Assembly (NCBI GenBank): GCA_951406725.2
Contig: OX597827.1
Span: 27,714,001 to 27,778,000 of the forward strand
Length of the DNA stretch: 64,000 nucleotides
Direction: 5' to 3'
Source: Octopus vulgaris
Lineage: Eukaryota
How positions within the stretch are numbered: the first letter of the stretch is position 1; each line of letters starts with the position of its first letter. The notes under the pieces were generated by a model. That model had not been told where the DNA came from. It worked only from the letters and a program-made list of their open reading frames with translations, and did no database searches. Both the position numbers and the translations under genes were made by a program. Positions 17,183 to 25,446 of this stretch are shown here, piece by piece.

Positions 17183-17331
17183 TATCTATCTATCTATCTA
17201 TCTATCTATCTATCTATCTATCTATCTATCTATCTATCTATCTATCTATCTATCTATCTATCTATCTATCTATCTATCTATCTATCTATCTATCTATCTA
17301 TCTATCTATCTATCTATCTATCTATCTATCT
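17183..17331. repeat. (TATC)n tract
   Basis: Perfect tetranucleotide run abutting the 5' end of the truncated LINE. Confidence 0.95.
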
Positions 17332-18532
17332 GGCGGTGAACAGGTGTGGTCGCCGTTTGTGAGGCACGCTTTCCCACAGCTCGTCTCCATGACCGAACTG
17401 CAATCGTGGATCAAAAAGAGGCCGAGGAAGGGCGAATGGCACAGCGAGTGTCGCGTTGCTCTCAAGCAACTCTGCCGTCCTGGGTCAACCTTGAGTGACT
17501 TCAACACAACCAAAGCATTCTATAGAGGATTAGTGGAGGGAAGGTACGACGACAAGCTCGGGGCGAACCTGGACGTCGACGAGGAATACCTGACCCGCCT
17601 GTTCAGGACGACTTTCCGGCCAGGGCCTATGGACAGCTTCCAGAGATCCCTGGCCTGGCAGTGCTACCGAGAAGCGCTACCCGTTTGGGATAAGCTCTAC
17701 AGACACGGCTCGAGAAACACGGGGCCGACCTTCCCGAGATGCGGTCAGAGCGACGAAACCGTTCTGCACGCACTCGTGCAGTGTCCAACAATTTCCGACC
17801 TGTTGGCTTATGTCGAACAACTGCTGTCACGTGTGGGACGAGTCGGTTTATCAGCTGAGTCTATCGTCAATATTGTCACGCGAAGGAAGAGCTATTTTCA
17901 TAATCCTTGTGGCTATGGCGAAAGAATGTATCTGGTGGACGCGTCTGAAAGGATTGGAGACAAACACTTTCCTCTCTGGTCAACCTCTCATCAACTTCTT
18001 CATGTACCACTTGAAATGGAAAGTGAGAGTAGAGAGGCAAGTTTTGTCTAGCGAACGTTTTTAAAAAAAGATGGGTGAATGTAGCAAGGATGGCACGCAT
18101 GAATGACGAAGCCACCTTGAGCATAATCCTATGAACCCAGAAATTGAAAACAGAGGGTTACCCACTTGCAAACAAATGTGGTAAACATATAACAATATTG
18201 ACCAAGGTTACCGTGGTCTTTTTCGTGGGCTTTTCTTCCCACGGATAAACCTTACTTACTTTCCCCTTTACACCATACATCATAACACTGTGATACACGA
18301 TACCTATTGATCGTTTTTTCCTCTTCTCCTTCTTTTTTCATTTTTCTTTTCTTTTGTTCCTTTTCCCTTTTTTCTTTTTTCTTTTCCTTTTTTTGTTCTT
18401 TTTTTTCCCTTTTACGATCCCTTTTGATCGAAAACCTACGCCACCCCTTTTTTTTTTTCATCCCCCAAAAGAAAAGCTCTACCTTGTAACTTGTCCCATC
18501 TGTGTGCAGCCCTGTGTGGCCAATAAAGAAAC
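17332..18532 (+). mobile_element. 5'-truncated Tx1-group LINE
   Basis: Highly similar to about 23901-25161; ends aataaagaaac followed by ttatctatc repeats. Confidence 0.92.
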
Positions 18533-19017
18533 TTATCTATCTATCTATCTATCTATCTATCTATCTATCTATCTATCTATCTATCTATCTATCTATCTAT
18601 CTGTCTGTCTGTCTGTCTATCTATCTACCTAGCTAGCTAGCTATCTGTCTGTCTGTCTGTCAGTCTATCTATCTATCTATCTATCTATCTATCTATCTAT
18701 CTATCTATCTATCTATCTATCTATCTGTCTGTCTGTCTGTCTGTCTGTCTGTCTATCTATCGATCTATCTATCTATCTATCTATCTATCTATCTATCTAT
18801 CTATCTATCTATCTATCTATCTACCTATCTATGTCTGTCTGTCTGTGTCTCAGTGTATCTGTCTGTCTGTCTGTCTGTCTGTCTATCTATCTATCTATCT
18901 ATCTATCTGTCTGTCTGTCTGTCTGTCTGTCTGTCTATCTGTCTGTCTGTCTGTCTGTCTGTCTGTCTGCCTGTCTATCTATCTATCTATCTATATATAT
19001 ATATATCTATCTATCTA
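18533..19017. repeat. Compound (TATC)n/(TGTC)n tract between the two LINE copies
   Basis: Seen directly. Confidence 0.9.
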
Positions 19018-21281: not shown

Positions 21282-24200
21282 ATGATCAAGATTGGTTGTG
21301 TAAATGCGCGTGGCTTGGGGTCCCTTTGGAAACAAGGGTACCTCTTAAATGACATAAAGTCACATAAGTTAGAAATCATAGCCATAAGTGAGACCAGACT
21401 CCACAAACCGCGGGTCCTAAAGACCATGTTTGGCGGACAGTTCAACATTTATTTTCCCCCTGTCTGCCGAGAATGGGCGGTAGTGGCACCGCGGTACTTT
21501 TTCGCAAGAGTCTGGATCTCAAAGTAAGGACAATATTCGTAGACCCGGAGGGTAGACTGGTCGTCCTGGATGTCGACGGCAGCAATGGGTGCGCTTTTCG
21601 ACTCGTATCAGTCTACGCACCGCCCTTAACAGGTCGGGCGGATTTCTTTCAACGTCTAGAAGTATTCTTGGGAACGTCTCGTCCTTTACTCTTAGTGGGG
21701 GATTGGAATGCTACCTTGGACACGCATGTAGACTACGTGGGTAGAGATAGGAATAGACGGGGATGCAAATGCCTCAGAGACCTGCTCAGACGCTTTCAAC
21801 TGTCTGACAGGTTCCGACTAGACCACCCGAATGCGCCAACGTGGACATGGAGCAACCGCATCGGGTCGTCGAGATCGTATCTAGATAGGATACTCTGTAG
21901 GACAGTAGACAGAGATAGCATAGGATGTCCACAATTCCACATAGTCAGCTACACGGATCACAAACTTGTGACATGTACGCTAGACTTAGGTAAGACACAT
22001 AGGCAGGGTCCCGGATACTGGAAACTAAACGCGTCTTTCCCATCGAGACAGGTTTTCAGAGACCGGATTAGCACACTAGTAAAGAGGGTTTTGACGGGGG
22101 CCATCATCAACAACAAATGGTGGTTTGCCCTCAAGAGAGCAGTAAAAGCTGAAGCGATTAGGTACAGCAAAGCACTAGCCATAGATAGAAATAGAGTAGA
22201 GGGTGAGCTAGTTAAGAAGCTAGAAGAGGCAATTAGAAGCGGCATCGCATCCGACGTTTTGGCGGCGAGGTTTGCCCTCGACCAACACTTCAACGCCAAA
22301 CACGAAGGATGTGCTGTCAGAGCTAGGACGCGTGCTCTAAGGAACGAAGGTGTTGGAGCCGCGAGAGAGGCCCTGGTGGCAGAGGCGCAACAGGGCAACA
22401 AAGCCACCATTCGGTCCCTGGTAGATGAACAGGGGCGCGAATTGCTTGAGCCAAGTAAAATGTGTGAGGCCTTTCAGCAGCATTTTGCCCGACTGTTCGG
22501 GACGAGTGGAGGGCAAGAACGTAGGGTGGACTTCAGTGCCTACCTACATAGCCTACCACGACTCTCGACAAGAAAGGCAGGGTGCTGTGAAGGTGCCATC
22601 ACGGCGGCGGAAGTGCAGGACGCGATGGCAGAATGCTCGAGGGACAAATCACTGGGTTTGGATGGTCTATCCTACGAGCTTTACAATTATATGCCAGACT
22701 TGTTTGGAGATCTCTTGGCGGCGGTGTCCTGCAACTGGCAGAAAAACGGGATCATTCCTGGTTTTGTGAGCCGAGGAGCCGTAACACTGCTGAAGAAAGA
22801 TCTAAACAAGGGAAATGTAATAAATAACTTTAGGCCCATCACTCTGCTTAATGCAGACTTGAAAATTTTGACCAAGGTGCTAGCCAAGAGGTTGGCGCTT
22901 GTCATCGAGAAACTGGTCGACAAGGCGCAAACATGCGCCGTGCCGGGCCGGACCATCCATGACAACCTCCACCTGATGCGCTACATCATAGACAGGGTAG
23001 TTAACGAACCTGGCATGGGTGGGGCGCTGATCAATTTGGCTCAATCGAAAGCTTTCGATAGGGTAGACCATCGATACTTGGAGGCGGTCCTCAGAGCGGC
23101 TGGCTACGGTCCCGTCTTCCGCGGCTGGATAGCCGCTTTATACAGAGGCATCCGTTCGGTAATTCGCGTGAATGGACATCTATCGAGACCCTTCGACATC
23201 GCACGTTCGGTCCGTCAGGGATGCCCCCTCTCGTCGCTTCTATACGTATTGACTCTCGAGCCATTATTGCGGAAGCTGGCAACTTTGAGGGGCATCCCGC
23301 GAGAACTGGGATGCGGGACGAGCGTGTCTGCATACGCGGACGACGTCACCGTCATAGTGTCTAGCCACGAGCACATCGAGCAGGTCGGCAAGACACTGAA
23401 AAACTACGAAGCGGTGACAGGAGCGAAAATCAACCGGGAAAAGTCAGTGGGCTTGCGACTAGGCACCTGGAGAAGCAAGCCCATGCCGTCCATCAGCGCC
23501 TCCGTCGTGGGACGCTGGACCGACGGCCCGGTTGAGTTGCTCGGGGTCTGGTTTGGTCCGGACCTCCAAGTGGAGAAGAACTGGAACGAGATAACGAGTA
23601 GGGTGGTCACTCTCGCCCGGCAATAGGCCGAGAGGAAACTGTCCCTAAAAGGTCGGGCGGAGGTGGCGAACACGTACATCGCGTCCGTCATCTACTACCG
23701 CCTGACCGTCGTACCTTGTCCCGACCCTACCATCACCAAACTAGAACGCATTCTCTTTCGCTTCTTGTGGAAAGGATGCGTCCCGATGGTTAGGCGATCC
23801 ATTTGCTGTCAACACCCGTTAAAAGGAGGACTGGGCATGCCGTGGTTGATGATGCGCAGACACACGCTGAGACTGCGACATCTCAGGCTCTTCGTAGACG
23901 ACGGTGAACAGGTGTGGTCGCCGTTTGTGAGGCACGCTTTCCCGCAGCTCGTCTCCATGACCGAACTGCAGTCGTGGATCAAAAAGAGGCCGAGGAAGGG
24001 CGAATGGCACCGCGAGTGTCGCGTTGCTCTCAAGCAACTCTGCCGTCCTGGGTCGACCTTGAGTGACTTCAACACAACCAAAGCATTCTATAGGGGATTA
24101 GTGGAGGGGAGGTACGACGACGAGCTCGGGGCGAACCTGGACGTCGACGAGGAGTACCTGACCCGCCTGTTCAGGACGACTTTCCGGCCAGGGCCCATGG

Positions 24201-24704
24201 ACAACTTCCAGAGATCCCTGGCCTGGCAGTGCTACCGAGAAGCGCTACCCGTTTGGGATAAGCTCTACAGACACGGGGCCGACCTGCCCGAGATGCGGTC
24301 AGAGCGACGAAACCGTTCTGCACGCACTCGTGCAGTGTCCAACAATTTCCGACCTGTTGGCTTATGTCGAACAACTGCTGTCACGTGTGGGACGAGTCGG
24401 TTTATCAGCTGAGTCTATCGTCAATATTGTCACGCCTCCTTACTTCAAACGGGAAGGAAGAGCTATTTTCATCATCCTTGTGGCTATGACGAAAGAATGT
24501 ATCTGGTGGACGCGTCTGAAAGGATTGGAGACAAACACTTACCTCTCTGGTCAATCTCACATCAACTACTTCAAGTACCACTTGAAAAGGAAAGTGAGAG
24601 TAGAGAGGCAAGTTTTGTCTAGCGAATGTTTTAAAAAAAGATGGGTGAATGTAGCAAGGATGGCACGTATGAATGACGAAGCCACCTTGAGCATAATCCT
24701 ATGA
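21282..24704 (+). pseudogene. LINE ORF2 (APE endonuclease, reverse transcriptase, CCHC), disrupted
   Basis: NARGL, ISETR, VGDWNA, SYLDR, TDHK (APE); FRPITLLNADLKI, KAFDRV, VRQGCPLS, AYADD (RT). Frameshift near 21455, TAG at 23624-23626, and a 14-nt deletion near 24275. Confidence 0.9.
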
Positions 24705-25446
24705 ACCCAGAAATTGAAAACAGAGGGTTACCCACTTGCAAACAAATGTGATAACATATAACAACATTGACCAAGGTTACCGTGGTCTTTTTCATAGGCT
24801 TTTCTTCCCACGGATAAACCTTACTTGCTTTCCCCTTTGCACCATATATCATAACACTGTGATACACGATCCCTATTGATCGTTTTTTTTCCTCTTCCCC
24901 TTTTTTCCCCTTTTTTCTTCTTTTTTCATTTCACTTTTCTTTTGTTCCTTTTCCTTTTCTTTTTTTTCTTTTTTTTCTTATTCTTTATTTTCTTTATTTT
25001 TTTTGTTCTTTCCTTCCCTTTTACGATCCCTCTTGATCGAAAACCTGCGCCAACCCTTTTTTTTCTTTTGTTTTTTGTTTTTTGTTTCATCCCCCAAAAG
25101 AAAAGCTCTACCTTGTAACTTGTCCCATCTGTGTGCAGCCCTGTGTGGCCAATAAAGAAACTTATCTATCTACCTATCTATGTCTGTCTGTCTGTCTGTC
25201 TGTCTGCCTGTGTCTCAGTCTATCTGTCTGTCTGTCTGTTTGTCTGTCTATCTATCTATCTATCTGTCTAACTGTCTATCTGTCTGTCTATCTTTCTGTC
25301 TGTCTGGCTGTCTATCTTTCTGTCTATCGGTTTGTCTGTCCCCGCTCTCTCCTCGTTGTGTTTGCCAATTTCCCTCTCCACATCACATGTTACTCAATCA
25401 TATACATACATGTGTGCGAGGTGTGTGCTTATATATTAAAATATCG

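Follow-up and report, generated by a model that had tools for sequence, protein, structure and literature searches.

The window (the whole stretch of 64,000 nucleotides that was analysed, from Octopus vulgaris contig OX597827.1) contains a single compound TATC/TGTC array that hosts two copies, A and B, of an element with two open reading frames, arranged head-to-tail and both on the + strand (Table 1). Both copies terminate in AATAAAGAAACT, which abuts (TATC)n directly, without poly(A). Searches with blastn and tblastn returned A and B alone as copies of this element in the window. An old reverse transcriptase (RT) fragment with 37% identity lies at 13372–13695; TATC is absent from 12500–14800.

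Table 1 Features of the array and of the two element copies (window positions)
Feature	Position	Strand	Description
Upstream block	17183..17331	+	Perfect (TATC)37 plus T; flanks the 5′ side of copy A
Copy A	17332..18533	+	5′-truncated; last ~270 ORF2 codons and 3′ UTR
Middle block	18534..19022	+	Compound TATC/TGTC; flanks A on its 3′ side and B on its 5′ side
Inner array unit	18754..18975	+	TATC run, TACC, TA, (TGTC)n, TG TGTC TC AGT
Copy B	about 19023..25162	+	Near full-length, broken, ~6.14 kb; ORF1, APE, RT, zinc finger
ORF1 of B	19244..21241	+	T/N-rich; single CX2CX4HX4C knuckle, 20366–20407
ORF2 of B	21282..24704	+	APE endonuclease, RT, C-terminal zinc finger; broken
APE endonuclease domain	about 21282–21990	+	PF03372, above cut-off
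RT domain	22799–23548	+	PF00078, above cut-off
C-terminal zinc finger of ORF2		+	Weak PF13966, under curated cut-off
3′ UTR of B	24705..25162	+	Pyrimidine tracts; AATAAA at 25151–25156; no poly(A)
Downstream block	25163..25340	+	(TATC)2 TACC, then degenerate TGTC/TATC; flanks the 3′ side of B

Element copies and the repeat around them

Copy A matches B from B position 23902 onward and carries two private lesions, a 17-bp deletion and a 1-bp insertion. It is a typical 5′ truncation, the ordinary product of its element class, and ends with AATAAA (18522–18527) followed by GAAACT, without poly(A). The 5′ end of copy B was placed at 19016–19023, the exact base being ambiguous by about 7 bases. ORF2 of B is interrupted by a frame break near 21460–21480, a stop at 23624–23626 and a 14-bp deletion near 24272. 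Its predicted APE domain has the residues of the catalytic motifs (N, E, Y, D-x-N, D and H), and the hairpin loop of this domain is as long as that of L1. ORF1 of B had no Pfam matches and is 24% identical over 251 amino acids to the ORF1 of a sister lineage described below; a homologue search with ORF1 confirmed none of 567 candidates. The terminal 75 nt of the 3′ UTR are the same in A and B, and a hairpin at the element’s 3′ end was unsupported (z of +1.0 and +1.2).

TATC stands at all four junctions of A and B: the 3′ end of A at 18533 is followed by (TATC)17 and that of B at 25162 by (TATC)2 TACC, and the 5′ end of B is preceded by (TATC)3 TAT TATC. The coordinates thus confirm what the sequence-only reading had described, namely two copies in the same orientation that share a 3′ end followed by TATC and that begin on TATC. 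Its account of (TATC)n flanks needs qualification; TATC is present at every junction, but in one shared compound array, and the repeat phase differs between the 5′ junctions of A and B. The independent flanks number fewer than four, as the 5′ flank of B is the 3′ flank of A, leaving three repeat blocks at one locus.

When B was excised in silico, 18976–19022 joined to 25163–25320 was collinear with 18754–18975 (score 296.5), a score that none of 500 block shuffles reached (top shuffle score 215). This inner unit has the same interrupted signature after a plain TATC run, as expected for an empty site, and looks like the uninterrupted version of the unit that B split. Because of this resemblance, the TATC/TGTC repeats 3′ of the copies are probably target DNA and not an element tail. 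The interrupted, duplicated segment is common to the middle and 3′ blocks and absent from the rest of the window.

Arrays of (TATC)≥3 outside the cluster occupy 282 of 55,842 bases (0.5%; 1.9% with the host array included), and none of the five other such arrays in the window carries a copy. The chance of two random same-orientation insertions in such DNA is about 2 × 10−4 and that of a second insertion into the same array about 0.7%, both figures being post hoc, as the locus was chosen for its appearance. A candidate 150-bp target duplication for A, suggested by CT preceding both TATC runs, was rejected because the terminal T also occurs in B and in SINE tails. Self-targeting of the element’s own ends was likewise rejected, A and B lying 489 bp apart.

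Clade assignment and a sister lineage

ORF1 together with an ORF2 that has an N-terminal APE domain, an RT and a C-terminal zinc finger is the architecture of the L1 group, and human L1 ORF2 was the top match in a PDB search with ORF2 (141 bits, with R2 at 69 bits). Under the same program and database size, B scored 277 bits against L044, a Keno-type copy lying between U2 halves, compared with the 141 bits for human L1 ORF2; identity to L044 is 35% along the RT stretch. Apart from the sister lineage, no relative of identified function scored higher than L044. A CCHC knuckle in ORF1 is a feature of the Tx1 clade, and B has one (Table 1). The sequence-only reading had proposed an RT/APE phylogeny with Keno, Kibi and Koshi. 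In our RT trees the element groups with the Keno-type L044 (SH-aLRT 97); named Tx1L, Kibi, Koshi and L1 sequences are absent from these trees, and the few rows outside the L044 group include two long branches. The bit scores support the Tx1-group identity that had been suggested, with L044 as the single anchor.

The sister lineage (L001–L043) comes from animal-type contigs within the MAG records CAXXMW01 and CAXXGD01; its sister position has an SH-aLRT of 99, and it has 44% ORF2 identity to the window element and a homologous ORF1. Its copies end at AATAAA, with poly(A) in 0 of 67 3′ junctions and (TATC)n in 0 of 67 junctions, so a (TATC)n target is not lineage-wide. Target duplications are 13–18 nt in length and target DNA follows AATAAA directly: the solitary copy L043 has a 13–14-nt duplication beginning at AATAAA, and the L020 array is bounded by an 18-nt duplication with 2 mismatches. 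Copies stack head-to-tail at one site, 5′-truncated units included, and the arrays combine these truncated units with ORF1s of two types, whose identities to the reference unit are 98% and 67%, a mixture that points to repeated insertion at one site. In the L006 array, identical truncated units occur twice in succession. Arrays on five contigs (c3, c6, c8, c14 and c18) have the same 11–16-nt spacer after AATAAA, and the ends of c18, the only one of the five with both ends visible, form no duplication; a short 3′ extension can therefore travel with the sister element. Sister copies are separated by non-repetitive spacers of 11–24 nt and carry a strong hairpin ahead of AATAAA, whereas the window copies are separated by a TATC array and such a hairpin is unsupported in them. 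Among genome contigs, C-terminal alignment confirmed none of 52 pattern matches, and RT alignment found 45 loci with a top identity of 50%, none of which belongs to the family of the window element.

Two probable insertions and the competing explanations

We think it likely, with a probability of about 0.65, that A and B entered the array separately and that their family, of the Tx1 clade, has a preference for (TATC)n. The copies have diverged by 3.0%. Over 259 codons they show 9 synonymous and 12 non-synonymous differences (dN/dS of 0.39); in simulations the synonymous bias falls short of significance (P = 0.10 and P = 0.077), and pooling with UTR sites gives a Fisher P of 0.045. Compared with P0177, 5 of the 12 amino-acid changes fall in B and 6 in A, with 1 ambiguous, and the lesions in the overlap are private to each copy, none being shared. 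The synonymous bias counts toward two separate insertions, weakly favouring them. In Drosophila, tandem dimers are described that form when a preferred site is hit by two insertions (bioRxiv 10.1101/158386).

Fairly unlikely, in our judgement, is a single insertion into the TATC array followed by unequal crossing-over between flank blocks, which duplicated the copy, and by the loss of 4.9 kb from the upstream copy, a history that requires no family-wide TATC preference. The ordered, interrupted signature shared by the middle and 3′ blocks, unique in the window, is what such a duplication would leave, the differences between A and B fit neutral drift (P of 0.08–0.10), and the repeated truncated units of the sister array L006 indicate that DNA-level duplication occurs in arrays. 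This history nevertheless demands three extra events (the crossover, a 4.9-kb deletion ending exactly at the repeat and a loss of about 280 bp, which falls between the 3′ end of B and the signature). 5′ truncation is the usual outcome for the class, and the dN/dS of 0.39 leans toward separate master lineages.

It is more improbable still that TATC/TGTC was carried by the element RNA through donor read-through, the tandem having formed by template jumping or local re-insertion with no real endonuclease preference for TATC. The absence of poly(A), the signature in both 3′ flanks and the sister spacers on five contigs, with the non-duplicated ends of c18, are compatible with a carried tail. Such a tail leaves the perfect (TATC)37 before the truncated A unexplained, however, and the signature lies 2 units past B but about 280 bp past A; the distal part of the 3′ block has the degeneracy of an array long in place, and sister extensions of about 15 nt fall short of the hundreds of nucleotides needed. 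As a sole explanation, an element-templated tail, which the sequence-only reading had kept as an alternative, is weakened because the array holds an empty-site-like unit and because sister target DNA directly follows AATAAA.

Least probable of all is that TATC was incidental, the element loosely favouring microsatellites or flexible AT-rich DNA in general, or copies having built up passively. Outside the cluster, perfect repeats of 1–4 nt do make up 10% of the window, and L1-type endonucleases are described as sensing DNA shape over sequence (PMC1950540); yet AT, AC and ACAT repeats (2398, 902 and 732 bases), which outside the cluster are 3–9 times as abundant as AGAT (268), carry no copies. 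The proposed (TATC)n preference stands as the best reading of the locus, with the single-insertion duplication retained beside it at low odds and one locus as its base.

Target choice and known systems

A family is counted as target-specific when more than 20% of its copies have one flank sequence type (PMC4494074); both window copies have a TATC flank (2 of 2), both inside one array. Counting against a TATC preference, none of four SINE copies that share the element’s 3′ end lies near (TATC)3, although the SINE tails are only 83% identical to that end and may derive from another family.

For A and B we infer a mechanism in which the APE domain of ORF2 would nick the (GATA)n strand and the freed 3′ end would prime reverse transcription at the 3′ end of the RNA, just beyond AATAAA. 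A few read-through UAUC units would probably help by pairing with the GATA primer, much as the poly(A) of L1 pairs with a T tract. Early termination would yield the truncated A and complete copying B; the repeat target would survive each insertion, never being exhausted, and for that reason successive copies would stack facing the same way. Inside the repeat, neither the exact position of the nick nor the length of the target duplication can be read. RNA–target pairing may share the choice of TATC with the endonuclease, and we give roughly even odds to specificity coming mainly from one or the other. A YLSI-type repeat, the expected translation of (TATC)n in fusion with parts of the element, was found in 0 of 176 proteins and, by eye, in none of five proteins from the C-terminal search.

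Tx1-clade families at (TC)n, (TTC)n and (TTCC)n/(TTTC)n have been described (PMC4494074). Teleost Kibi ((TC)n) and Koshi ((TTC)n) and the crocodilian Tx1-1_Crp group ((TTCC)n/(TTTC)n) are, like the window element, two-ORF Tx1 APE elements in microsatellites (PMC4494074, PMC3812793), but their targets are pure pyrimidine strands, whereas the flanks here, in an octopod, are (TATC)n, which contains A, and not (TC)n, (TTC)n or (TTYC)n. Keno, specific for U2 snRNA, has an RNA-gene target; the window element lies on a different RT-tree branch, and an Rfam scan of the window gave 0 matches, U2 snRNA included. Waldo (ACAY), Mino (AC), Dong (TAA), Togen (TG) and Tx1-1_ACar (telomere repeat) also insert into renewable repeats, but differ from the window element in clade or target, and TATC/GATA is not among the targets given for them in these sources (PMC3812793, PMC4640811, PMC10088271). 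We found no (TATC)n/GATA target for Tx1 in the literature, although the per-family target list of PMC4494074 may hold one. Microsatellite targeting by Tx1 families is thus already known, and (TATC)n would likely be an added target, not a new kind of system.

If the preferred reading of two targeted insertions is right, the Tx1 target list gains an A-containing tetranucleotide, and relatives that are 44% identical and use short non-repetitive sites provide a contrast set for changes in target choice, for which the intact sister ORF2s of L006 are usable. As of 2013, how APE elements target microsatellites at the molecular level was described as not well understood (PMC3812793). In practice, GATA markers in octopods could have common element-derived flanks. 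A broader picture, which we hold to be doubtful, is a cephalopod Tx1 lineage whose families would each find their targets through a short stretch of read-through RNA beyond AATAAA, paired with the nicked DNA, with targets switching quickly between families; the window family would be fixed on GATA repeats, stacking there and perhaps spreading GATA, and at least two octopus SINE tails would derive from 3′ ends of this lineage, Tx1 elements then being tail-sharing partners of tRNA-type SINEs.

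Structure and class of the element

The DNA of the window is animal and rich in microsatellites. A single repeat array, in three blocks, holds two copies of a Tx1-type retrotransposon, one near full length (copy B) and one 5′-truncated (copy A). ORF1 of copy B has 665 codons and a single CCHC knuckle, and its ORF2 is broken in three places. Both copies end in AATAAAGAAACT, then directly in TATC, and poly(A) is absent from both 3′ ends; the shared strand, common 3′ end and adjoining TATC described in the sequence-only reading are therefore borne out. Near the 3′ end of ORF1, another reading frame may encode its true C terminus, in which case ORF1 is frameshifted too.

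Features of the window and of the Keno-type contig L044
Feature	Position	Strand	Description
Array with both copies	17183–25340	+	three repeat blocks
Copy A	17332–18533	+	last 1.2 kb of the element only
Intact array unit	18754–18975		plain TATC run of 17 units, then TACC
Copy B	about 19023–25162	+	ORF1; ORF2 with APE endonuclease, reverse transcriptase and C-terminal zinc finger
Alternative ORF1 frame	21040–21237
SINEs with element-like tail	51561–51793, 54141–54353, 54354–54537, 54538–54721		match of tail to element 3′ end about 83%
SINEs with second tail type (CCCCAAAA..GGCCTTGTGCCT)	12676–13300, 51794–51990, 61121–61560		tail matches sister Tx1 3′ region, not window element
Old Tx1-like fragment	13372–13695		RT/thumb; 37% identity to protein relative P0003; flanked by SINEs
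Second broken LINE	30476–34233		RT; C-terminal restriction-like endonuclease motif
27-bp direct repeats	30476–30502, 34207–34233		either side of second LINE
Other repeat family	1799–4922, 44212–46528		long inverted ends (44221–45009 versus 46459–45646, 94%)
L044, Keno-type element	1889–7820 of L044		in U2 snRNA; U1 and 5S genes adjoining; filed as bacterial MAG

The APE–RT part of ORF2 scored 277 bits against L044, 141 bits against human L1 ORF2 and 69 bits against R2. The L044 copy has the 5′ part of U2 snRNA upstream and the remainder downstream, which is the arrangement of Keno in the available text of PMC4494074; with this one anchor, the scores support the earlier assignment of the element to the Tx1 clade. 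Scores of about 600 bits were obtained against an array-forming sister lineage, and among named homologues of ORF2 an Argonauta hians protein comes closest (53% identity), which makes an octopod the likely host. RT trees of 179 rows and of 41 rows chosen from these to represent the branches, both without named Tx1 or L1 references, resolve the element and P0003 as the sister group of the array-forming lineage (SH-aLRT 99). A C-terminal relative (64% identity), annotated as a Herbaspirillum MAG protein, is probably animal DNA in a bin. There is no TATC near the old Tx1-like fragment in the window.

Flanks of the sister lineage

Scanning genome contigs for relatives yielded 45 loci, from 126 pattern matches of which 72 were confirmed; 42 of the loci are on animal-type contigs of one MAG record, with intact ORFs in head-to-tail arrays and 43–44% identity. 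These loci (L001–L042; CAXXMW01, filed as a bacterial MAG) occupy at least 16 contigs, their near-identical units joining several 5′ types to a common 3′ half; they are host DNA placed in the wrong bin, and form a Tx1 lineage that is strikingly satellite-like. On 17 contigs, 67 distinct 3′ junctions were examined, and none has poly(A) or (TATC)2 within 60 nt. The lineage is site-loyal and without poly(A), in keeping with what the window shows, but TATC is not among its targets. The solitary copy L043 has a 13–14-nt target duplication that begins with AATAAA, and the L020 array has an 18-nt duplication at its two ends. Arrays mix two ORF1 types and include 5′-truncated units following a full spacer, the outcome expected if insertion recurs at a single site, a route to tandem dimers described in the available text of bioRxiv 10.1101/158386. 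Directly before AATAAA, L001–L043 carry a 5–9-bp hairpin of varying stem sequence (17 variants folded), likely an RNA recognition signal; folding gave no support for one in the window element.

Origin of the two copies and probable target preference

The middle and 3′ blocks of the array have in common an ordered, interrupted signature (TACC TATC TA (TGTC)n, TG TGTC TC AGT) that is absent from the rest of the window. This can be read as the trace of unequal crossing-over following a single insertion. Copies A and B are 3.0% divergent (29 of 964 unique sites), each has a private deletion, and no lesion is common to both in their overlap. The 259 codons compared contain 9 synonymous and 12 non-synonymous differences; because of this pattern (dN/dS 0.39; P = 0.10 by neutral simulation; when 293 UTR sites are included, 0.077 by simulation and 0.045 by Fisher test), the comparison leans, short of proof, towards separate source lineages. 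At 12 sites compared with the protein relative P0177, the derived residue is in B at 5 and in A at 6, so neither copy, as it stands today, gave rise to the other.

The signature can also be read as flank carried by the RNA of the element. In the sister lineage, near-identical spacers recur on five contigs and the ends of array c18 mismatch each other, which counts against a pure duplication model of those spacers and suggests that element RNA can carry a short 3′ extension along with it. When B is removed from the window array, the flanking pieces join into a unit collinear with the intact one (score 296.5, reached by 0 of 500 block shuffles); this split unit has about 13 TATC units ahead of TACC, and B lies two units before TACC. 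On the simplest reading, B inserted into an array that already had its inner duplication, so that the 3′ repeat would be target DNA.

Arrays of (TATC)≥3 make up 282 of the 55,842 bases of the window outside the cluster. The chance that two random insertions of the same orientation both fall in such DNA is near 2 × 10−4, and that of a second insertion in this same array near 0.7%, both computed after the fact from junctions that are not all independent (the 3′ flank of A is the 5′ flank of B). The window has five further TATC arrays, and none of them holds a copy. The targeting of (TATC)n proposed in the sequence-only reading is partly supported: a Tx1 family preferring (TATC)n is the best reading of this single locus, at a probability of roughly 0.65, and its endonuclease may recognise the repeat.

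Under this preference, the APE, the catalytic motifs of which are found, would most likely nick the (GATA)n strand. Reverse transcription would begin at the RNA 3′ end, just beyond AATAAA, where read-through UAUC could pair with the primer and aid the start; copy A would be a product of truncation. A hairpin loop probes the target in L1-type enzymes (available text of PMC1950540); that of the window element has the L1 length, two residues shorter than in Tx1L, and says nothing direct about TATC. Known Tx1 targets, in the available texts, comprise (TC)n, (TTC)n, (TTCC)n/(TTTC)n, telomere repeats, U2, U5, 5S, satellites and transposons (PMC4494074, PMC3812793, PMC4640811, PMC10088271, PMC1950540, PMC4824008, PMC4758252, PMC8967140, bioRxiv 10.1101/158386, PMC13282606). 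Our literature search, with Repbase and subscription journals outside its reach, found neither a TATC/GATA-targeting family nor an octopus SINE with a Tx1 tail, which is weak evidence that none exists.

SINE tails and other repeats

Four of the 11 SINE copies in the window have tails that match the last 42–55 nt of the element (score 64 versus 33 for the best shuffle), and are arranged in tandem or lie within the heads of other SINEs; their tRNA type was assigned by eye, and Rfam gave no match for the tRNA-type copies. Other SINEs match the 3′ region of the sister lineage (scores 37–42, equalled by 0 of 1,000 shuffles). None of the 11 lies near (TATC)3. The finding cuts both ways: if the window family itself mobilised the four SINEs, TATC specificity becomes doubtful, and it is plausible that a different family moved them, because O. 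vulgaris has 80 L1-Tx1 families (available part of the PMC13282606 supplement).

The repeat family with long inverted ends is probably a DNA transposon. The second broken LINE may be HERO-like, and the direct repeats on either side of it are probably its target duplication.
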